From Candidatus Kapaibacterium sp. (GTDB taxonomy: Bacteria > Bacteroidota > Ignavibacteria > Kapaibacteriales > UBA2268): a stretch of DNA of 64,000 nt. Of the stretch, positions 3,449-62,541 are shown piece after piece. The notes under the pieces are model-generated. The model saw nothing but the letters and a program-made list of their open reading frames with translations. It ran no database searches and was not told where the DNA came from. The stretch covers positions 2,048,001 to 2,112,000 of the forward strand of contig OY761611.1 in assembly GCA_963664875.1 (NCBI GenBank), read 5' to 3'. Each line of letters begins with the position of its first letter. Position 1 is the stretch's first letter. Made by a program: the position numbers and the translations under genes.

Positions 3449-3490
3449 AAAAAAACAGCTGTAAGGTTAAGACTTACAGCTGTTTTTTTT
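3449..3490. terminator. Bidirectional intrinsic terminator
   Basis: A7-CAGCTGTAAG..CTTACAGCTG-T8. Confidence 0.85.
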
Positions 3491-3522
3491 GTATCTTTGA
3501 TAAAATCATACTCATATAGAAT
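3483..3522 (+). repeat. ~40-bp direct repeat copy 1 containing a TAnnTTTG promoter element (copy 2 at 4522-4561)
   Basis: TTTTTTTGTATCTTTGATAAAATCATACT(C/T)ATATAGAATA occurs upstream of both the 3535 and 4567 genes. Confidence 0.85.
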
Positions 3523-3534
3523 AACAGATTTATC

Positions 3535-4215
3535 GTGAAAACAATTTACTCCAAGTCAATTTATATACCCCTTCTCGTAATGCTAATTGCCTTATTGTCC
3601 TGTAGTAGGGAGAAATTTGTTGATTTAGATTATTACGAAGCAAAAATTTGCACATCTTTTGATACTATTGATATGAAGGATTCCCTCAATATTATCATTA
3701 CTATCAAAAATGTGGATACTATTCCAATTATTTATCCGGGAGTGAATGGATTCTTTGCAGCATACGGATTCAATATTATTGAGTATGCAACAACATCATT
3801 TTATTCAGGTTTCATTCTGAAAAACTATAAGGCTGGGTGGTTGCTTGGTAGTTCAGGATTGGACAACGTTCTACCTTTTTTTTATAGAATTTTACCTAAC
3901 AAGTCTTTGAGGCTATCTTTATATGTGCCTTATTATGTGGAATATGATTCTTTGGCAAAACATTATAAAACTTTTGTTTCTCTTGATAGTTACGATTCCC
4001 TACCTAAAAGAATATGTGGTGAATTGTATTCTGGTCAGGATAGCTTGACTTATGATTTTATCACATTCCCGGAAAAGATTACTGATGTATATTTAGATAA
4101 TTACATTACACTAAATATTGATACTCTATTCTACTCAACTACAATAATGGGAGGAGCTGCGACAAAACATACAGTCCCATACAGTCCCATACAGTCCATA
4201 TTATTATGGTCATAG
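3535..4215 (+). CDS. Hypothetical lipoprotein, probably frameshifted near its 3' end (alternative stop at 4315)
   Basis: Lipobox LLSC; CATACAGTCC x3 at 4168-4197; removing one unit extends the frame to TGA 4313-4315. Confidence 0.65.
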   Translation: MKTIYSKSIYIPLLVMLIALLSCSREKFVDLDYYEAKICTSFDTIDMKDSLNIIITIKNVDTIPIIYPGVNGFFAAYGFNIIEYATTSFYSGFILKNYKAGWLLGSSGLDNVLPFFYRILPNKSLRLSLYVPYYVEYDSLAKHYKTFVSLDSYDSLPKRICGELYSGQDSLTYDFITFPEKITDVYLDNYITLNIDTLFYSTTIMGGAATKHTVPYSPIQSILLWS

Positions 4216-4372
4216 TAAAAAAGTAGAGAAATTTTTTGATCTCTTAAATATACACAGGCAAGAAATCGTTTTAGATTTTAAAACACCAGGGTTGAAGCGA
4301 AAACATTGGCGTTGATTGCTATATTGTAGTTAGTATTTTCATTTGTCATATCACAAAATTTTATATATTGTA

Positions 4373-4429
4373 TTCAACATGCTTGCCCCGCTTCCCATTA
4401 GAACAGCGCGCTAAGGGTAAGCTTTTTTT
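4373..4429 (+). ncRNA. Orphan abiF-type structured RNA (putative antitoxin RNA)
   Basis: Same fold and inner loop as the element upstream of the Abi gene at 52.3 kb: GCTTGCCC/GGGTAAGC outer stem, CGCT-TCCCATTAGAAC-AGCG inner hairpin, T7 tail. Confidence 0.72.
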
Positions 4430-4521
4430 GCCTGCCATTAAATGAACTTTAGATATAATATACAAAATCTTTTGTTTATTGTTTTGAATATTTCCTCTCC
4501 TCTTAAGCTTATAATATCTCC

Positions 4522-4561
4522 TTTTTTTGTATCTTTGATAAAATCATACTTATATAGAATA
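4522..4561 (+). promoter_or_regulatory. ~40-bp direct repeat copy 2, likely promoter of the response regulator
   Basis: Contains TATCTTTG (Bacteroidota-type -7 element) about 30 nt before ATG 4567. Confidence 0.6.
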
Positions 4562-4566
4562 CTATT

Positions 4567-5937
4567 ATGGCTGATATAAAACTTCTTATTGTTGATGACG
4601 AGCAGTCGCAGGCAGATGCTCTTGCCGGCTTTTTCAAAAAGCGGGGATTTGCCGTTTTTACTGCTTATAATTTGAATGATGTAAAAAATGTGCTCGAATC
4701 TGAGGCAGTTGACATTTGCTTATCGGATTTGAAGCTGAAAGATACAACCGGAGCGGAAGTGCTATCGCTTGTCAAGCAGAAGAATCCTCACACTCCCGTT
4801 GTGATTATGACGGCTTACGGTTCGGTAGATGATGCTGTCGGTCTAATGAAAGAAGGTGCTTTTGACTTTATCCAAAAGCCAATCGATCTTAAAGAGCTGA
4901 CTGCTATAATCTCCAAGGCTGAAGACAACTGCTATCTTGTTTCAGAAAATACTAAGCTGAAAGAAGAGCTTGCCTGCTCCACTTCCTTTGATAATATCAT
5001 TTCTCACAGCAAGGCTATGGAGCAGGTTCTTAATACTGCTGCAAGAGTCGCTCCGTCAAAGGCGGGTGTGCTTATTCGCGGGGAAAGCGGAACAGGTAAG
5101 GAACTAATTGCTAAGGCAATTCATCTTAACTCCCCTCGCAAGGATAAACCATTTATTGTTGTGAACTGTGCGGCAATGCCTGATACGCTTTTTGAAAGTG
5201 AACTATTCGGACATGAAAAGGGTTCGTTTACAGGTGCGGTGAAACAGCGCATAGGCAAGTTTGAGGAAGCTAACGGTGGAACACTATTTATAGACGAAGC
5301 TGGCGACATCCCTCCCCAGATACAGGTCAAACTCCTTCGAGCTATTCAGTTTGGCGAGATACAGCGCCTTGGCAGCAATGAAGTCATAAAACCCGACGTT
5401 AGAATCATTGCTGCAACAAACAGAGATTTAGAGAAAATGATTTCCGAAGGTGATTTCCGGGAGGATTTATACTACCGTTTTAATATAGTAACTATCAAAC
5501 TCCCTGCACTCAGAGAGCGTAAAGAAGATGTGCCTTATCTGATTGACCATTTTATAAAGTCGTTTAGCGAAATAAACGGCAAAAGTGTTAGCTCTATCAG
5601 CAAAGAGGCACTGGCAGAACTGATTAACTACAGCTTCCCCGGCAATATCCGTGAGCTCGAAAATATAATACAAAGGGCTGTTGTTCTTTCTCGCGACAAT
5701 ATGGTTAAACTGCAGGATTTGCCTGAAGAAATCAAAGGACACTCCCGAACAGAATCAGTTGACTGCGACCATCTATCTCTGGGCAATCTCAACCAAAAAG
5801 TAGAGAATTTAGAAAAAGCACTTATAAACAAAGCCCTTTCGGAATCAGGCGGCAATCAGGTAAAAGCCGCAGAACTCTTAGAAATATCGGAACGCACTCT
5901 GCGATATAAGATATCTAAGTATAAGATAAAGGGGTAA
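4567..5937 (+). CDS. Sigma-54-dependent response regulator, NtrC/AtoC family
   Basis: REC domain (VDDE, SDLK, TAYG, KP), AAA+ (GESGTGKE, ELFGHEKGSFTGA, FREDLYYR, PGNIREL), Fis-type HTH. Confidence 0.95.
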   Translation: MADIKLLIVDDEQSQADALAGFFKKRGFAVFTAYNLNDVKNVLESEAVDICLSDLKLKDTTGAEVLSLVKQKNPHTPVVIMTAYGSVDDAVGLMKEGAFDFIQKPIDLKELTAIISKAEDNCYLVSENTKLKEELACSTSFDNIISHSKAMEQVLNTAARVAPSKAGVLIRGESGTGKELIAKAIHLNSPRKDKPFIVVNCAAMPDTLFESELFGHEKGSFTGAVKQRIGKFEEANGGTLFIDEAGDIPPQIQVKLLRAIQFGEIQRLGSNEVIKPDVRIIAATNRDLEKMISEGDFREDLYYRFNIVTIKLPALRERKEDVPYLIDHFIKSFSEINGKSVSSISKEALAELINYSFPGNIRELENIIQRAVVLSRDNMVKLQDLPEEIKGHSRTESVDCDHLSLGNLNQKVENLEKALINKALSESGGNQVKAAELLEISERTLRYKISKYKIKG

Positions 5938-48990: not shown

Positions 48991-49063
<73 letters not shown>

Positions 49064-49120
49064 CTGGAAGAAACTTATAAATCCTTATAGCTGATAAAGT
49101 TATAAGGATTTTTTGTTTGT

Positions 49121-49142
49121 AGTTGGGGCACAAGTTGGGGCA
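49121..49142 (+). repeat. Tandem 10-bp direct repeats, putative integrase arm-type sites
   Basis: AGTTGGGGCA at 49121 and 49133, after a hairpin at 49078-49112. Confidence 0.55.
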
Positions 49143-49207
49143 ATCCGTGCAAAAAATGATAATTTCTGTTGATCTACAATCTGTTTTTTTGGGGAGGAAT
49201 TAATCCC

Positions 49208-49477
49208 CTAAAGTATCGATTTAATATAATCAATATTTTGATTTATCCTATCTAATTTTATAAGTAACTCTGAACGGGCTACTCTGAGTTCAGAGAGTTT
49301 TGCTTTTATTAAACCTCTCCTGCTTGCTTCAGTAATAGACTCAATGTATTTTTCTTCTTCGGCAGTATAAGATTTTCTACAAGTCATGCATTTATACCTC
49401 TCTTCCTGCCTTTTATTATATTCATGGAATTTTGCTTTATGGAAGCAATAGGGACATATCAATAGTGGATGTTGCAT
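49208..49477 (-). CDS. Small zinc-ribbon / coiled-coil protein
   Basis: CPYC...RYKCMTC followed by a heptad-rich tail. Confidence 0.6.
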   Translation of the reverse strand: MQHPLLICPYCFHKAKFHEYNKRQEERYKCMTCRKSYTAEEEKYIESITEASRRGLIKAKLSELRVARSELLIKLDRINQNIDYIKSIL

Positions 49478-49577
49478 TGTGTATAGTAGGAAATAAGTGA
49501 AAATAACATCCTAAATGACGATATTAGGGTTTTGATATTGGATATATAACCTATAGTTGAACAATATAGGTTATGTT

Positions 49578-49844
49578 ATGACAGAACTTATCGCTTTGAG
49601 CAAAGAAGAATTGGCAGAATTGATTGAGAAAAAAGTGCAAGAAGAAGTAGCTAAACAGCTAAGTATGATTTCAATAAGAGATGATGAAACACTCTTATCT
49701 ATTGCGGATGTATGTGATAAATATAAAATCAGCAGTACAAAGTTTTGGAGAATTCGTAGAGATCATAAGATACCTTTTCAATTGGTCGGTAAGAATCCTC
49801 TTTTCAAAATTCAAGACTTAGAAGAATTCTTCCATATTCCATAA
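49578..49844 (+). CDS. Excisionase-like helix-turn-helix protein
   Basis: LLSIADVCDKYKISSTKFWRIR..IPF..VG..PLF...DLEEF. Confidence 0.8.
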   Translation: MTELIALSKEELAELIEKKVQEEVAKQLSMISIRDDETLLSIADVCDKYKISSTKFWRIRRDHKIPFQLVGKNPLFKIQDLEEFFHIP

Positions 49845-49854
49845 TTCAAATCTT

Positions 49855-49885
49855 GAGCTCCTGCATATGATGCAGGGGCTTTTTT
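49855..49885 (+). terminator. Intrinsic terminator
   Basis: GAGCTCCTGCAT..ATGCAGGGGCT followed by T run. Confidence 0.75.
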
Positions 49886-50102
49886 ATAAATACAAAAAGT
49901 GATTTGCATACTGTAAACAGAAATACTTCTTTTTTCATGTCGATCTAAACAAAACAATAATAATTTCTATGTTTATTTAATAAGTATATTTTATGAATTG
50001 TCCTGAATTATCCATATATTGTTTGTTTGTGTATGATATCCTAATCCATTAGGAATGGGTGTCTTTCTTTGGTAAGTAAGTAGATAATTAGGAATATTGA
50101 GG

Positions 50103-52178
50103 ATGACCCCAAATCAATATGCAGATTTTATATGGAATATTAAAGAATACCTTAGAGATGATTATTCGGAGAAAGAATACGAAGAGGTAATCCTTCCATT
50201 TACACTGCTCAGAAGAATAGATTGCGTGCTTGAAGGTACACATAGCAAAGTAGTTGAAAGTTTAAATAAATATAAAAAACTTCCTGCTGGTACCTTGCAG
50301 GGCTTGCTAAGAAAAGCAGCAGGGCATAATTTTTATAATACTTCTCCTTTTACCCTATCTACATTATTGAACGACCCAAACGGTTTAAAGGAAAATATCA
50401 ACAACTACTTAAATGGTTTTAGTGAGAATATAAAGGATATTCTATACAACTTTTCAGGTGGTAAAGAAAAGGGACTTTCTCCGATTTATGAAACTCTCGA
50501 CCGTAAAAATTTGCTTTTTTATATTCTGAGAGCTTTCACAGAAGTTGATTTACATCCAAATGTAGTGAGCAATCATAACATGGGAACGATATTTGAAACC
50601 TTAATTAGGAAGTCTAAAGAATCTACTAATGAAAAAGCAGGACAGTATTACACACCACGTGAAATTGTAAAGTTAATGGTAAATGTTCTTTTTGCCGACC
50701 AAAAAGAGAAACTATCACAATCGGGTGCTGCATGTATGATTTATGATCCTGCTTGTGGTACTGGTGGTATGTTAACTACTGCTAAAGACCATCTAAAAGA
50801 AACTATTAATCCGAATCTTGATGTTTATCTTTTTGGGCAAGAGTTAAAAGAGCAGACTTATGCCATTTGCAAAGCTGATATTCTTATCAAGAGCAGTGAA
50901 GAGAAAAATGATGATTCCGAGAATATCAAACAAGGTAATACCATATCTGAAGATAAGCTACAGGGCAAACGTTTTCACTATATGCTGACGAATCCTCCGT
51001 TTGGTGAAGATTGGAAAAAGATTGCAGACTTTGTAGAAAAGGAAGAAGCTCTTGGTTCACAAGGTAGATTTGAAGCTGGCACTCCTGATAAAAGTGACGG
51101 CTCCTTACTCTTTTTACAGCATATGATTTCTAAGATGGAAACCAAAGCCAAAATAGGAATTGTATTCAACGGTTCCCCACTATTTAATGGAGATGCAGGG
51201 TCAGGTCCTTCTAATATCAGGAAATGGATTATAGAAAATGACTTATTAGATTGTATAATAGCCCTTCCTAAAGATTTGTTTTATGGTACAGGTATCGGTA
51301 CTTATATATGGATTTTATCTAATTTTAAGCCAAGTGACAGAGAAAATAAAATTCAACTAATTAATGCAACTTCCGATAGACATTATACTCCACTACGCCG
51401 AAGTCTTGGAAAGAAAATGGTAGAAATTTCAGAAAATCAAATAGAAGATATAACTAATCTTTATACTGATTTTAAAGAAGTTGACAAAGTTGTTAAAATT
51501 TTTGATGATATTGATTTTGGATACACGAAGGTAGTTGTTGAAAGACCTCTTCGATTGAAATATGCAATAACAGTCGACAAAATTCAAACATTTAAAGAAC
51601 AAAAATCATTTATCAGTCTTGCTGAATCTAATAAGAAAGATTCTGAGAAAGCAAAGATTGAAATTGAAAACGGCAAGAAGAAACAGAAAGAATACATTGA
51701 TGCTCTTCTTGCTATAAAAGAACTTAATAAAGAAATCAATGATAGAGAGTTCTTTACTGAACTTGACAAGAGCTTATCGTATAAGATACCAAAGGGTTGG
51801 ATTAAAACAATGAGAAGTATTTTCGGAGACAAAGACGAAAGTGCTGATAAAGTTTTACTTGATCCGTTTGCTAAAAAGATTCCTTCTTTAGAAGAGATGG
51901 ATTCCAATCCAAGTAAATATTACGAAGTTGATACCGACTTAAGAGACTCTGAAAGTATTCCATTAAAGCAGAATATAGAAGAATACTTCAAAAAAGAAGT
52001 TTTGCCTTTTGCTCCTGATGCTTGGATGGATAGAGATAAAGATAAGATTGGTTATACTATAAGCTTTACTAAATACTTCTATGAATATAAGCCTTTGAGA
52101 AATTTAGAAGATATTATGTCGGAATTTAAAGCACTTGATGACGAAACGGAAGAAATGATTAAACAAATAGAAGATTAG
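50103..52178 (+). CDS. hsdM: Type I restriction-modification methyltransferase subunit
   Basis: ILPFTLLRRIDC, GQYYTPRE, YDPACGTGG, NPPF, GSPLF, FTKYFY. Confidence 0.95.
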   Translation: MTPNQYADFIWNIKEYLRDDYSEKEYEEVILPFTLLRRIDCVLEGTHSKVVESLNKYKKLPAGTLQGLLRKAAGHNFYNTSPFTLSTLLNDPNGLKENINNYLNGFSENIKDILYNFSGGKEKGLSPIYETLDRKNLLFYILRAFTEVDLHPNVVSNHNMGTIFETLIRKSKESTNEKAGQYYTPREIVKLMVNVLFADQKEKLSQSGAACMIYDPACGTGGMLTTAKDHLKETINPNLDVYLFGQELKEQTYAICKADILIKSSEEKNDDSENIKQGNTISEDKLQGKRFHYMLTNPPFGEDWKKIADFVEKEEALGSQGRFEAGTPDKSDGSLLFLQHMISKMETKAKIGIVFNGSPLFNGDAGSGPSNIRKWIIENDLLDCIIALPKDLFYGTGIGTYIWILSNFKPSDRENKIQLINATSDRHYTPLRRSLGKKMVEISENQIEDITNLYTDFKEVDKVVKIFDDIDFGYTKVVVERPLRLKYAITVDKIQTFKEQKSFISLAESNKKDSEKAKIEIENGKKKQKEYIDALLAIKELNKEINDREFFTELDKSLSYKIPKGWIKTMRSIFGDKDESADKVLLDPFAKKIPSLEEMDSNPSKYYEVDTDLRDSESIPLKQNIEEYFKKEVLPFAPDAWMDRDKDKIGYTISFTKYFYEYKPLRNLEDIMSEFKALDDETEEMIKQIED

Positions 52179-52261
52179 ATTGGATGCAGATAACTTATTT
52201 ATATAGCAATGTGTTTTTATATCCTAAACAAATATTTTTTATTTTGTTTTTGAAATTAATT

Positions 52262-52290
52262 TTTGTTTCTAAAAAAGTTTTGTACATTTG
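52262..52290 (+). promoter_or_regulatory. Bacteroidota-type sigma70 promoter for the ncRNA/Abi module
   Basis: TTTG at 52262 and TACATTTG at 52283-52290. Confidence 0.6.
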
Positions 52291-52350
52291 TTCAACAGTA
52301 GTCGCCACGCTTCCCGTTAGATCAGCGCATTATGGCGGCTCTTTTCATTT
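52291..52350 (+). ncRNA. abiF-type structured RNA (putative antitoxin)
   Basis: AGTCGCCA/TGGCGGCT outer stem, CGCT-TCCCGTTAGATC-AGCG inner hairpin, U-rich tail, directly upstream of the Abi gene. Confidence 0.78.
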
Positions 52351-52358
52351 TATGCCCA

Positions 52359-53297
52359 ATGGAATATAATAAACAAGCCAAGACCATAGATGAGCAGATT
52401 GCTCTACTGACTTCAAGGGGTATGCTTTTTGAGGATAATGAATATGCGAAAAACATATTATCCAAAATATCATACTACAGGTTAAGAGCATATTGGCTCA
52501 CCTTCGAAAAGGAAAATGTAACCCCTGACTCCCACTTTTTTAAAGCTAATACTTACTTTGAGCAAGTCGTAAAAACTTATGAGTTTGATAGAAATTTGAG
52601 ACATTTAGTATTCAATTCTATCGAAAAAATAGAGATTGCCCTACGAACTCAAATGATATACTGTGTTACGAATAACACTCAAGATATTACATGGTACACA
52701 AAAACTCAATATTTCGAAAAAGTGTATCACTTTAACAATCTTATGGATTTATTTGACAAGGAATATCAAGACAGTAAGGAAGTGTTTATTGAACATTTTA
52801 AAAGCAAGTATAACGACTCACCTTACCCTCCTGCTTGGATGGGCTTAGAAATTCTTTCTTACGGACAACTTTCTAAGCTTTTTAGCAATCTAAAAAGAGA
52901 ATACGGTAAATATGACATCGCTAATTACTTTGGTGTTCCTTTAAGATTGTTGTTGTCCTGGTTTGAAGCATTGACTTACTATCGGAATGTATGTGCTCAT
53001 CACGGAAGATTATGGAACAGAAAGTCACCTAAAGCTCCGATGTATCCTAACAAACCTAAACCGAACAAGCCCCCAATCTTCAAATGGTTAGATTTTGAAC
53101 CTGCTGAAGATAAAAAAGACAGATTGTATGGTAGCTTAGCTATTATTTATCTGTTGCTCAAACCTCTAAACTACCACGAAGAGTATAAAAAAGAGCTGTT
53201 CGATTTAATAAATTTATATAACTTTTTGCCTTTGCATTATATTGGCTTCCCTGAAAAATGGGAAGAGGATTCTTTTTGGAGCAGCGATAATGTATAA
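52359..53297 (+). CDS. Abi family (AbiD/AbiF-type) HEPN RNase
   Basis: EQIALL.SRGM, ISYYRLRAY, YEFDR.LR, IEIALR, PPAW..EILSYG, RNVCAHHGRLWNR (RxxxxH); likely start ATG 52359. Confidence 0.92.
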   Translation: MEYNKQAKTIDEQIALLTSRGMLFEDNEYAKNILSKISYYRLRAYWLTFEKENVTPDSHFFKANTYFEQVVKTYEFDRNLRHLVFNSIEKIEIALRTQMIYCVTNNTQDITWYTKTQYFEKVYHFNNLMDLFDKEYQDSKEVFIEHFKSKYNDSPYPPAWMGLEILSYGQLSKLFSNLKREYGKYDIANYFGVPLRLLLSWFEALTYYRNVCAHHGRLWNRKSPKAPMYPNKPKPNKPPIFKWLDFEPAEDKKDRLYGSLAIIYLLLKPLNYHEEYKKELFDLINLYNFLPLHYIGFPEKWEEDSFWSSDNV

Positions 53298-54621
53298 AAA
53301 ATATGATAAATATAAAGATAGTGGTGTTGTTGGAATTGAGCAAATTCCTGCGCATTGGAATATTAGGAGATTAGCAACTTTGGGTAAATTCTCTAAAGGA
53401 TTTGGTATTTCTAAGTCAGACATCTCAGAATTTGGTGAACCTGCTATTTTATATGGAGATATTTATACTAAATATTGTATTAGGACAACTACTTTTCAAA
53501 ATTATATATCAACAGAAACTGCAAAGTATGCAAAAAAAATCAGATGTAATACTTTACTGTTGACGGGTTCGGGAGAAACAAAAGAAGATATTGGCAAATG
53601 TATAGTGTATCGAGGTGCTAAATCTGCTTATGCTGGGGGTGACATTATTCTCTTTGAACCATCAGAAACCAATAGTCTATTGCTAAGTTATATATTAAAC
53701 AGTGAATATGTGAAAGCTCAAAAATATGCAATTGCGAGAGGAGATATTATAGTTCATATTTATGCTTCTGCTCTTAGAGAGTTAACACTTGCCCTCCCCC
53801 CATTACCTGAGCAACAAGCAATCGCTAATTTCCTTGAACATAAAACTAAGTTAATCGATAATATTACAAGCAATAGAAGGCGGCAAATAGAACTGCTGAA
53901 AGAGGAAAGAAAAGCTGTAATTAACCGGGCGGTTACTAAAGGTATTAACCCTGATGTTAAGTATAAGGATTCAGGTGTAGAATGGTTAGGCGATATCCCT
54001 GAGCATTGGGAGGTTGTGAAGTTGAAAAATATAGCTTCAATTAAAAATGGACGAGATCATAAACATGTATATGATGAAAATGGTAAATATCCTATTTATG
54101 GGTCTGGAGGAGTATTTGGTCGAGCAAATGAGTACTTATATGAAAAAACAAGTGTACTATTGGGTAGAAAAGGTACTATCGATAAACCTATTTTAGTAAC
54201 AGAACCATTTTGGACTGTAGATACAGCATTTTATACTGAAATTTCGCAGCAAGTTTTACCAACAATATTTTATTATCTATGCAAACAAATTGATTTTGGG
54301 AAATATGTTTATGGCTCAGCTCTTCCAAGTATGACTCAAAAAGATTTAAAAGAAATTCATTTTGCTCTTCCTACAATAAAAGAGCAACTTGAGATAGTAA
54401 ACTACATAGAAGAGCGAACTAATATAATAGACAAACTAATCAGCAAATATGAAAAACAGATAGAACTTTTAGAAGAATATAAAACTGTATTGATTTCAAA
54501 TGCTGTTACAGGACAAATAGATGTAAGGGATTGGAAGGCAAAAAGAATGGAATATGAAGATAGAGAAGAATCGTTCGGCTTGGATATAGCTGCTGAAGAT
54601 AGTGTTGAGTATGAGAAATGA
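53290..54621 (+). CDS. hsdS: Type I RM specificity subunit
   Basis: YKDSGV..IP.HW twice, LPPLPEQQAI, AVTKG/AVTGQID; start ATG 53290 overlaps the abi stop. Confidence 0.95.
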   Translation: MYKKYDKYKDSGVVGIEQIPAHWNIRRLATLGKFSKGFGISKSDISEFGEPAILYGDIYTKYCIRTTTFQNYISTETAKYAKKIRCNTLLLTGSGETKEDIGKCIVYRGAKSAYAGGDIILFEPSETNSLLLSYILNSEYVKAQKYAIARGDIIVHIYASALRELTLALPPLPEQQAIANFLEHKTKLIDNITSNRRRQIELLKEERKAVINRAVTKGINPDVKYKDSGVEWLGDIPEHWEVVKLKNIASIKNGRDHKHVYDENGKYPIYGSGGVFGRANEYLYEKTSVLLGRKGTIDKPILVTEPFWTVDTAFYTEISQQVLPTIFYYLCKQIDFGKYVYGSALPSMTQKDLKEIHFALPTIKEQLEIVNYIEERTNIIDKLISKYEKQIELLEEYKTVLISNAVTGQIDVRDWKAKRMEYEDREESFGLDIAAEDSVEYEK

Positions 54622-54683
54622 TTTTATATTATTAAATAGTTTTATTATTTTAAAACATTGTACATAAGTAAATTGGTGCAAAA

Positions 54684-55835
54684 ATGGGTGCAGCACTTAT
54701 AAATAATGCTATGCTAAAATGGGCAAGATATCGGGCAAAAGTAGAAATCGATGTTTTAACCAACAAATATCACAAATATAAAGATTGGGAAGAAGGGATA
54801 TCTAATCCCAGTTTTAAACAAGCTCAGAAGTTAGCATCATTATTGAAAGTACCTTTTGGCTACTTGTTTTTAAACACTCCTCCTTATGAAGTCAGACAAA
54901 CTGTAGATTTACGTACTATAGATGACATAAATTTATCTGAATTTAGTTTAGATCTTAAAGAAGTAATAGCTGATGCAATTCAGAAACAGGATTGGTTTCG
55001 GGACTACATTATTGATGCTGGTGCCAAACCACTCGAATTTGCATCTAAATATAGTCCGAGTTCTCCTATTGAAGAAGTTGCTGAGGACATAAGTACAAGA
55101 TTAAATTTGAGCTACTCTACAAGACAAGATATTTCCAGTAAAGATGCAATGTTACAATACCTAACTGAACAATCAGAAAAAGTTGGAATATTAGTAATTA
55201 GAAATGGGAAAGTTGGGTTTAATACACATAGATCTCTGAAAGTAGAAGAGTTTAGGGGCTTTGCTCTCCCTGATGAGTATGCACCTCTAATATTTATCAA
55301 TTCAGCTGATTACAGAGCCGCTCAAATTTTCACTTTAGTTCATGAGATAGCACATATATGGATTGGTATTGAAGGCGTTTCCAATTATTCAATATCTCAG
55401 CAAGCAAACAGACACTCAGAAATTGAGTTACGGTGCAATGCAATTGCAGCTGAAGTTTTACTTCCAACAGAGTTGTTTTTAGAAAATTGGCGTTTACACT
55501 CGGAAAGATTAGCACAAAAGTACGAAGCATTAGCAAATCATTTTAAAGTAAGTTCTATTGTTGTTGCGAGAAAAGCATTAGATATGGAGCTAATTGATAA
55601 AAGTGATTTTTTCGAATTCTATAATATTTTAGTTAAGAGATGGAACGCTTCAAAGTCAAAATCAAGTGGTGGGAATTTCAATGCGTCTTTTCCTATTTCA
55701 AATAGTAAAAGATTCACAAAGACAATTTTGTATGAAATCTCTAAGGGAAATCTGTTATTAAGGAATGGAGCGAGACTTCTAAATTCCAAAGCTTCTACTG
55801 TTTTTAACTACGGGAAGGACAGAGGGATTTTATGA
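54684..55835 (+). CDS. XRE-HTH + ImmA/IrrE family metallopeptidase
   Basis: LKWAR..WEEG..PSFKQ..LKVPFGYLF HTH; FRGF, FTLVHEIAHIW, CNAIAAEVLLP, FKVS. Confidence 0.9.
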   Translation: MGAALINNAMLKWARYRAKVEIDVLTNKYHKYKDWEEGISNPSFKQAQKLASLLKVPFGYLFLNTPPYEVRQTVDLRTIDDINLSEFSLDLKEVIADAIQKQDWFRDYIIDAGAKPLEFASKYSPSSPIEEVAEDISTRLNLSYSTRQDISSKDAMLQYLTEQSEKVGILVIRNGKVGFNTHRSLKVEEFRGFALPDEYAPLIFINSADYRAAQIFTLVHEIAHIWIGIEGVSNYSISQQANRHSEIELRCNAIAAEVLLPTELFLENWRLHSERLAQKYEALANHFKVSSIVVARKALDMELIDKSDFFEFYNILVKRWNASKSKSSGGNFNASFPISNSKRFTKTILYEISKGNLLLRNGARLLNSKASTVFNYGKDRGIL

Positions 55836-62375: not shown

Positions 62376-62541
62376 CTATAACAAATCCAAATTTCTTACG
62401 TAAATCAATTATAAACGATTTTTTGTATCAAGAACACATAAGTGTACCAACCGAGCAAAAATGCCACGGTGGTAAAGTGATACGGCTTTTATAAGCAAAA
62501 ACCACTTCTTGGTACTCCATTTTAACATAGGAGTATTTTCC

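Follow-up and report, generated by a model that had tools for sequence, protein, structure and literature searches.

The 64,000-nt stretch of the Candidatus Kapaibacterium sp. genome analysed here (contig OY761611.1, positions 2,048,001 to 2,112,000; the window) carries two copies of the small noncoding RNA (ncRNA) that precedes AbiF (Abi_2) toxin genes. One of them, site B, is the leader of a resident abiF gene; the other, site A, lies 48 kb away and has no toxin gene behind it. Site A genuinely belongs to the RNA class, and a type III toxin-antitoxin locus is complete at site B and incomplete at site A. We consider it somewhat better than an even chance that site A is the toxin-less remnant of an acquired abiF module of another subtype (subtype 1, distinguished below by its bulge and outer stem), without a role at the resident AbiF. 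The initial annotation of this DNA had named a relic of a deleted module as its second choice, and this is the explanation that fits best. Site A has the following parts.

4354..4375, + strand: block similar to the promoter region of type-1 abiF modules (nhmmer profile homology); its promoter function is putative
4373-4379, + strand: TTCAACA, read directly
4376..4429, + strand: gene-less AbiF-leader-type RNA (AbiFr-class, subtype 1), with a 5' AACAU, a two-stem hairpin, a 3' bulge and a U7 tail
4381..4388, + strand: 5' arm of the outer stem, GCTTGCCC, paired with 4415-4422 in both the minimum-free-energy and the covariance-model structure
4389..4408, + strand: inner stem, CGCT (4389-4392) with AGCG (4405-4408), enclosing the loop
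4393-4404, + strand: 12-nt loop, TCCCATTAGAAC
4409..4414, + strand: 6-nt 3' bulge CGCTAA, the mark of subtype 1; relatives have CGCTCA or CGCTTA
4415..4422, + strand: 3' arm of the outer stem, GGGTAAGC, 8 pairs, one of them G-U
4423..4429, + strand: T7 run, a terminator-like tail and the endpoint of homology to complete type-1 modules

The elements originally noticed as common to the two sites (TTCAACA, the CGCT/AGCG inner stem and the 12-nt loop), as well as the T7 run at site A, are all confirmed in the sequence. The outer stems, noted as different and yet fully paired, indeed form 8 pairs each, with one G-U pair in each. A 20-nt core common to the two sites, written as a pattern with two degenerate positions and searched with at most 3 mismatches, is found twice in the window, where 100 shuffles lead one to expect 0.00; the whole 3,827,814-base genome likewise yields two occurrences, both of them + strand, as compared with 0 for the reversed pattern used as control.

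Membership in the class can be judged from the leaders of other organisms. A search of 400 other genomes of the phylum gives homologues of the resident AbiF in 34 (E<=1e-20), with identity of at most 46%, and of 35-40% for the best full-length ones. At 29 loci of these relatives, a hairpin of the same kind lies just upstream in 23 cases, a different 'type 3' hairpin in 5, and none in 1. The alignment of the former group (A1; 23 hairpins, 21 abi loci of other genomes, 18 distinct rows) leaves out two identical duplicates and the window sequence. Its two-stem structure is paired in 93.5% of cells, with 5 pairs changed on both sides, as compared to 27-44% in slid controls, and its covariation score is reached by none of 500 shuffles; the inner stem is near-invariant across the 23 leaders. 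A covariance model built on this alignment (R1, 53 model positions, containing no window sequence) matches site A over its full length (positions 1-53 of 53) with 60.2 bits and E 7.3e-16, which bears out the assignment of site A to the abiF-type antitoxin RNAs. Sites A and B are the only two matches of R1 in the whole genome, and the runner-up in the window, an unrelated sequence, scores 13.6 bits. Site A keeps all 17 invariant columns of A1 and forms all 12 pairs, and it scores above the gene-linked site B, which deviates at two of the 17 columns, one of them via a flipped pair.

The proposed check with the abiF covariance model of Rfam failed at both sites. A scan of the window at gathering scores gave no abiF match (the 37-position model RF03085 has a gathering score of 37 bits), and neither did a search of sites A and B separately at E<=10; RF03085 found nothing in the whole genome at E<=10. 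As RF03085 misses the gene-linked site B too, this means that the model does not cover the Bacteroidota type of the RNA, and not that the RNA is unreal: sites A and B are leaders of the Bacteroidota, or PbAbiF, type. R1 itself misses the third leader type, so that the leader class is broader than R1. This third type, with a different loop, stands upstream of another set of Abi_2 genes (loci L018, L026, L027, L028 and L030).

The statement that no abi gene follows site A is upheld by several searches. Site A is separated by 137 nt from the sigma-54 response regulator ORF (open reading frame) at 4567-5937. A six-frame PF07751 search of the genome gives one Abi_2 match, the gene at site B, and a hidden Markov model of Abi homologues has no match within 1,500 nt downstream of site A. 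A DNA profile of 40 intact type-1 modules, which begins 40 nt ahead of the core and extends to 340 nt past the core start, aligns with window positions 4354-4429 (nhmmer, E 1.5e-22), and the alignment ends in the T-run. Past 4429, nhmmer detects no significant abi remnant, its second match (E 0.079) lying inside the response-regulator gene. A short ORF at 4442 begins with MNFRYNI, a loose resemblance to the N-termini of type-1 Abi proteins that is not significant by nhmmer.

Site A might be suspected of being a chance hairpin, or an ordinary intrinsic terminator of the upstream 226-aa ORF, unrelated to AbiF. It is, after all, a hairpin with a T7 run downstream of an ORF, and it folds without distinction: the minimum free energy is -15.4 kcal/mol and z is -1.72, with 9 of 200 shuffles folding equally well (at site B, z is -3.00 and 2 of 200 shuffles are as good). 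Because this thermodynamic stability is unremarkable, the support for site A is comparative and not energetic. This explanation can hardly be credited and was rejected, given the R1 score of a model made from the abi leaders of other genomes, the core expectation of 0.00, the match to the profile of complete modules, and the fact that the hairpin is one base away from that of a gene-linked RNA on metagenome contig L197. The 8+4-bp stem of site A and the T7 run behind it gave 0 sites in a simple terminator scan, the loop limit of which is 3-8 bases.

The gene-linked copy in the window and its gene are made up as follows.

52291-52297, + strand: TTCAACA
52295..52347, + strand: site B, gene-linked copy of the RNA class, subtype-2-like, leader of the resident abiF (R1 53.3 bits, E 9.6e-14)
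52300-52307 and 52333-52340, + strand: outer stem, AGTCGCCA with TGGCGGCT, 8 pairs, one G-U
within site B, + strand, read directly: inner stem CGCT/AGCG, loop TCCCGTTAGATC, 5-nt bulge CATTA
52359..53297, + strand: resident abiF, an Abi_2/AbiD-F HEPN toxin (Pfam Abi_2, E 2.1e-53)

The resident AbiF matches PDB entry 8VZ6, 'Abi family protein', with E 1.2e-52. Its putative start is placed at 52359 because an in-frame ATG at 52332 falls within the 3' arm of the hairpin. The gene sits inside a type I restriction-modification operon, between hsdM (50097-52178) and hsdS (53242-54621). In the region 48991-55835, a gene with helix-turn-helix and Peptidase_M78 (IrrE/ImmA-like) domains follows abiF and hsdS, and a tRNA gene (48991-49063) lies about 1 kb upstream of the operon; the whole looks like an acquired defence islet.

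The leaders fall into subtypes by bulge and outer stem: subtype 1 has a 6-nt bulge, CGCTCA or CGCTTA, and subtypes 2 and 2b have 5-nt bulges. By these marks site A belongs to subtype 1, and site B is subtype-2-like. A tree of 40 Abi proteins unites all 19 that are linked to subtype-1 RNAs in one clade (99/98), with the resident AbiF outside it, and the 4 proteins linked to subtype 2b in a clade of their own (100/99); the resident AbiF is on a long branch beside 2b (92/87), a placement that is unsure. RNA subtype thus tracks protein clade. The closest relative of site A is the RNA on contig L197, in which stems and loop are identical and one bulge base differs. The L197 hairpin stands directly before an intact 300-aa Abi_2 ORF (E 1.9e-56), the product of which is 34% identical to the resident AbiF. 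Together with the clade split, this indicates that the cognate toxin of site A belongs to an AbiF lineage absent from this genome. In sequencing run X2, from the same sample, a 421-nt contig over window positions 4375-4427 represents the RNA copy of another organism, with 4 differences and unrelated flanks.

These relations bear directly on the role first proposed for site A, namely that of a second antitoxin acting in trans on the AbiF encoded at 52359, for extra dosage or tolerance. The two RNAs have an identical inner stem and agree at 10 of 12 loop bases, each of the two elements in this genome is lineage-specific, and AbiF RNA antitoxins are able to act in trans, as far as the available portions of the reports cited below describe. 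We nevertheless hold such trans control to be unlikely. The whole outer stem and both the length and the sequence of the bulge differ between the sites; the protein clade of subtype 1 (19 proteins, 99/98) excludes the resident AbiF, to which the L197 protein is only 34% identical; and in five of six other genomes a gene-less copy has no Abi_2 target at all. That site A primarily regulates the resident AbiF, a gene with a leader of its own and of another subtype, is therefore disfavoured.

The remnant reading also draws on the local history of site A, which is found in a small insert with repeats at its ends.

3484..3523, + strand: left copy of a 40-nt direct repeat (repeat family D1, 2 copies, 98% identity, spacing 1038)
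3535..4215, + strand: 226-aa ORF with a lipoprotein-like N-terminus, family-less, not part of the RNA module
4522..4561, + strand: right copy of this direct repeat (40 nt), immediately before the sigma-54 response regulator gene

Between the repeats lies an insert of 1,038 nt, which contains the 226-aa ORF together with site A. As the right copy directly precedes the response regulator gene, the same 40 nt stand before both genes. In a genome of the same genus (G403), the insert is absent, the gap between the TonB receptor and response regulator genes being about 378 nt, versus about 1,090 nt here, and four same-genus genomes contain zero R1 matches and zero Abi_2 matches over the cut-off. The arrival of site A is accordingly taken as recent and lineage-specific, which we count in favor of its being an acquired remnant. 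In contigs from 4 DNA-type sequencing runs the insert is present wherever covered, and none skips it; two of these are almost identical with the window, which may derive from them.

The 226-aa ORF has no Pfam or NCBIfam match, and no homologue in 300 other genomes of the class (E<=1e-4). A shared upstream partner gene was considered and rejected, as this ORF and the 222-aa ORF at the gene-less copy of genome G077 are unrelated (best BLASTP E 3.0). Two repeat structures lie close by. Three tandem 10-nt units (ATACAGTCCC) occupy 4168-4197 at the 3' end of the ORF, and a perfect 17-nt inverted repeat with a 7-nt spacer and A/T-run flanks, probably a bidirectional terminator, is found at 3449-3489, just after the gene of the TonB-dependent receptor. 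At the far end of the window, 62420-62511 is a SAM-I/IV riboswitch (61.7 bits, gathering 41.1).

Gene-less copies are not confined to this genome, and the initial suggestion of a survey for orphan copies proved fruitful, as they turned out to be common. A scan of species genomes with the exact subtype-1 core found at least 122 stretches; from these, 80 loci with flanks, which hold 81 instances, were sorted into classes; since the scan needs an intact core, decayed RNAs are unsampled in it. Among the matches listed, 40 of the 81 instances are followed by an intact-looking abi gene, 16 by a broken or truncated one, and 18 by none within at least 900 nt; the remainder are 1 tandem extra copy, 2 partial ones at contig ends and 4 undecidable. 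Collapsing near-duplicates leaves, again among the matches listed, 71 clusters: 33 full, 2 mixed, 14 broken, 16 without abi, 1 tandem, 3 short and 2 lying at the edge of a contig. In an unselected set of 151 genomes, searched with R1 and PF07751, 16 matches reach 52 bits or more, and the next one stands at 34.8; searches of more than 40 genomes use stricter filters, which lose weak matches. Seven of these 16 strong matches have a full abi gene, 2 have abi fragments and 7 have none. Toxin-less states are thus frequent, and they grade through broken genes into complete modules.

Apart from the genome studied here, six genomes of that set carry a gene-less copy; five of them have no Abi_2 match (E<=0.1) and the sixth has a fragment only, the search having covered all but 17,447 bases of G082. 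With five of six lacking Abi_2, gene-less copies do not generally serve a resident toxin. Orthologous gene-less pairs come in two kinds: some are 100% identical over 1,400 nt, and the others resemble each other only in an RNA unit of about 100 nt. The contexts of gene-less copies are diverse, and no shared partner family, such as an abi-like toxin of another fold, was found among the 38 of 78 flanking ORFs (those of at least 140 aa) that were scanned with Pfam. In the 100% complete genome G077, from the same order, R1 finds a copy with 56.8 bits and a fully paired, compensated outer stem, and there is no Abi_2 in the genome; a GmrSD_C-like ORF lies upstream of the copy and a convergent ribonucleotide reductase gene downstream. 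At G077 (L046:1773-2441) and, independently, at L118:96-1877, a gene-less copy lies immediately downstream of GmrSD-type restriction genes, so defence islands can harbour such RNAs.

Copies may also be multiplied. In L016 (836-888 and 1416-1468) and in L089 (two matches 711 nt apart), tandem copies of the same subtype precede one abi gene, and on one contig of Hallella absiana two subtype-1 RNAs (L057 and L058) lie about 4.7 kb apart, each followed only by an Abi_2 fragment.

The high frequency of gene-less copies invites the explanation that selection maintains site A as an anti-addiction or 'vaccination' RNA, an antitoxin that pre-neutralises incoming subtype-1 AbiF, so that mobile elements may be lost or tolerated without killing. 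Every conserved position of the site A RNA is intact; gene-less copies equal complete ones in frequency (7 versus 7 among the 16 strong matches in 151 genomes); some of them, at G077 and G139, keep their stems by compensation; the lack of Abi_2 in five of six other genomes is what a foreign target would lead one to expect; and several gene-less copies have in common only the RNA unit of about 100 nt, amid unrelated flanks. Action in trans is established for the RNA RCd22, according to the available text of its report. Orthologous pairs, being 100% identical or else unrelated outside the RNA, give no measure of selection. The lowest-scoring gene-less copies, in G146, G139 and G082 (52-57 bits), depart from the class at otherwise invariant loop positions, and there are weaker, decayed R1 matches of 34.8 bits (G066), 33.5 bits (G062:C48) and 25.4 bits (another), all of which fit relaxed constraint. 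A defence system disabled by an RNA may, moreover, be costly. On this balance a maintained protective RNA at site A appears rather doubtful.

In viral contigs, nearly all copies are gene-less. Core patterns of subtype 1 were found in 15 contigs and those of a subtype 2 in 22. These 37 loci include 2 with a full abi gene, 31 with none within at least 900 nt and 4 that are too short, so that 31 of 33 decidable copies are gene-less; collapsing duplicates leaves 24 clusters without abi, 2 with a full gene and 4 that are too short (26 decidable). For subtype 1 only, 10 viral copies are gene-less and 2 have abi, compared with 18 and 56 in bacteria among the matches listed there, a contrast with a Fisher p of 1.5e-4 that is computed on raw, non-independent counts. 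R1 gives 53.7-74.9 bits for 33 of the 37 viral loci. PHROGs was given 107 of the 131 flanking ORFs from 25 gene-less viral loci, near-duplicates having been dropped; matches were obtained at 23 of the 25, and terminase, head, tail, packaging or lysis genes at 11. At L207, L215, L217, L218, L219, L221, L233 and L235, HNH endonuclease or QueC-like genes often adjoin the gene-less copy, and several of these loci have conserved flanks in common and no T-run; such copies may belong to longer transcripts or mobile cassettes.

These viral copies raise the question whether site A was likewise an anti-defence RNA, an antitoxin mimic with which a phage or another mobile element disarmed host AbiF and which a decayed element left in the chromosome. 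The predominance of gene-less copies in viruses, the phage genes around them, the high R1 scores and the position of site A within a small repeat-ended insert would all suit such an origin. At site A itself, however, the neighbours (a TonB receptor, an ORFan, the sigma-54 response regulator and a Por-tail protein) include nothing phage-like; the upstream block and the T-run fit the architecture of the bacterial module, the T-run being absent from many viral copies; and the closest relative, on L197, is gene-linked. A phage origin of site A is consequently judged improbable.

If site A is a remnant, a subtype-1 abiF module would have been acquired horizontally and its abiF ORF cleanly removed, directly behind the RNA terminator, with the promoter-like upstream block, the hairpin and the U-tail remaining. 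Since the genome has no subtype-1 AbiF, the RNA would be without a cognate partner here. If transcribed, it would be about 50 nt long, with an 8-bp outer and a 4-bp inner stem, the conserved 12-nt loop and a 6-nt single-stranded 3' bulge; in complete systems, a fold of this kind binds the AbiF monomer and covers its HEPN RNase site. The RNA may be a neutral leftover, or it may be a free antitoxin able to disarm a subtype-1 AbiF that arrives later. An antitoxin lost before its toxin would be lethal, so that loss of the toxin first is the order that a toxin-antitoxin pair allows. The origin by deletion, the transcription and the binding are all steps that we infer.

Several observations weigh against a simple remnant. 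The deletion is deduced from other loci and not seen at site A, where no abi coding remnant is detectable, and the RNA could have come alone. Its pristine state fits selection, or a very recent loss, better than long neutral decay. Compensatory changes keep the pairing in other gene-less copies (the outer stem in G077, the inner stem in G139), which hints at constraint, though the changes may predate the loss of the toxin. The loop and the inner stem are nearly alike in all subtypes, leaving room for cross-binding to the resident AbiF. As for the survey, part of the 'broken' abi genes may stem from errors in metagenome-assembled genomes, and the R1 scores of linked copies are inflated because R1 was trained on linked copies, some of them from the surveyed genomes. 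Transcription, finally, is putative. The promoter-like sequence reported upstream of site A is present but weak: the best sigma-70 candidate, TTGTCA-17-TATTGT, has 9 of 12 matches, and the scan gives 3 sites versus 2.6 expected, which is chance level. The T-rich element upstream of site A is imperfect, being one base shorter than the consensus of the type-1 profile (nhmmer).

The RNA class and its mechanism are already known. The background given in the initial annotation, that AbiF is restrained by an upstream ncRNA and has a link to Cas13, is supported, together with action in trans, by the available portions of three reports, which describe AbiF as a type III toxin held by an upstream ncRNA and linked to the origins of Cas13 (PMC12373285, PMC12737573, PMC13064643). 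The same portions describe PbAbiF and its upstream ncRNA, AbiFr, as a toxin-antitoxin pair of type III with the structure PDB 8VZ6. The ncRNA blocks the HEPN site of AbiF (PMC12737573 and PMC13064643, as far as available); in the PbAbiF system, single-stranded bulge nucleotides of the RNA block the RNase site (available text of PMC12737573). The window AbiF matches 8VZ6, as noted above, and both window RNAs are of the hairpin class that precedes such Bacteroidota Abi_2 genes. Site A also has a single-stranded bulge, and its likeness to AbiFr in fold and in inhibitory nucleotides (C32 and U38, going by the available description) is presumed and not based on alignment. The toxin gene is present in the PbAbiF system, and there is none at site A.

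In Clostridioides difficile, RCd22 neutralises AbiFCd by direct binding, in cis and in trans, and also terminates transcription; it contains two RF03085 motifs, of 33 and 35 nt (PMC12373285, in the part available). There, too, an RNA upstream of an Abi_2 gene has the same class role; on that description it is gene-linked with two motifs, whereas site A is gene-less with one. The array-like tandem copies of L016 and L089 recall the two motifs of RCd22. A viral parallel is offered by phage PhiTE, the Pseudo-ToxI of which mimics the ToxI RNA antitoxin (available text of PMC3475682). This Pseudo-ToxI is likewise a type III antitoxin RNA apart from its toxin gene, and, as far as that text goes, the viral gene-less AbiF-type copies look like the same strategy; the toxin family in that case is ToxN and not HEPN Abi_2, and site A is chromosomal, with no phage context. 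An abiF small RNA has been annotated in the lytic cyanophage S-CREM1, with an RF03085 match of 51.6 bits (PMC9964418, available portion). The abiF-class RNA thus occurs in a phage there too, and by that portion it is of the RF03085 type and not of the Bacteroidota type.

Among type II systems, orphan antitoxins and anti-addiction modules are familiar, in which an antitoxin without its toxin is seen as a decay product or as a shield against the toxins of mobile elements. They persist without a toxin in the same manner, as proteins there and as an RNA of about 50 nt here. No account of AbiF-type RNAs that lack their gene, in Bacteroidota or in Bacteroidota phages, was found in the literature searched, the primary Cell 2025 paper and its supplements lying outside the coverage of that search.

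The pair of AbiF and its ncRNA is the proposed ancestor of Cas13 with its CRISPR RNA, and as a type III toxin-antitoxin defence it has only lately come to be understood. The Bacteroidota form of the RNA falls outside the Rfam model, and its subtypes track protein clades. This RNA very often outlives its toxin or travels without it: about half of the strong bacterial matches, and nearly all viral copies, are without an intact toxin gene. If the phage copies are indeed antitoxin mimics, viruses would be countering AbiF widely with an RNA-based anti-defence strategy; chromosomal copies, should they be maintained, would count as RNA anti-addiction genes. We put forward only tentatively, as a view well short of even probability, that stand-alone AbiF antitoxin RNAs are a selected counter-measure, with which Bacteroidota phages disarm host AbiF and chromosomes, site A included, guard against incoming abiF modules. 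Were this so, site A would be an expressed and functional 'RNA vaccine' against subtype-1 AbiF, and the tandem and solo copies would show the hairpin multiplying and detaching from its nuclease, which would be relevant to the proposed route from AbiF to Cas13.

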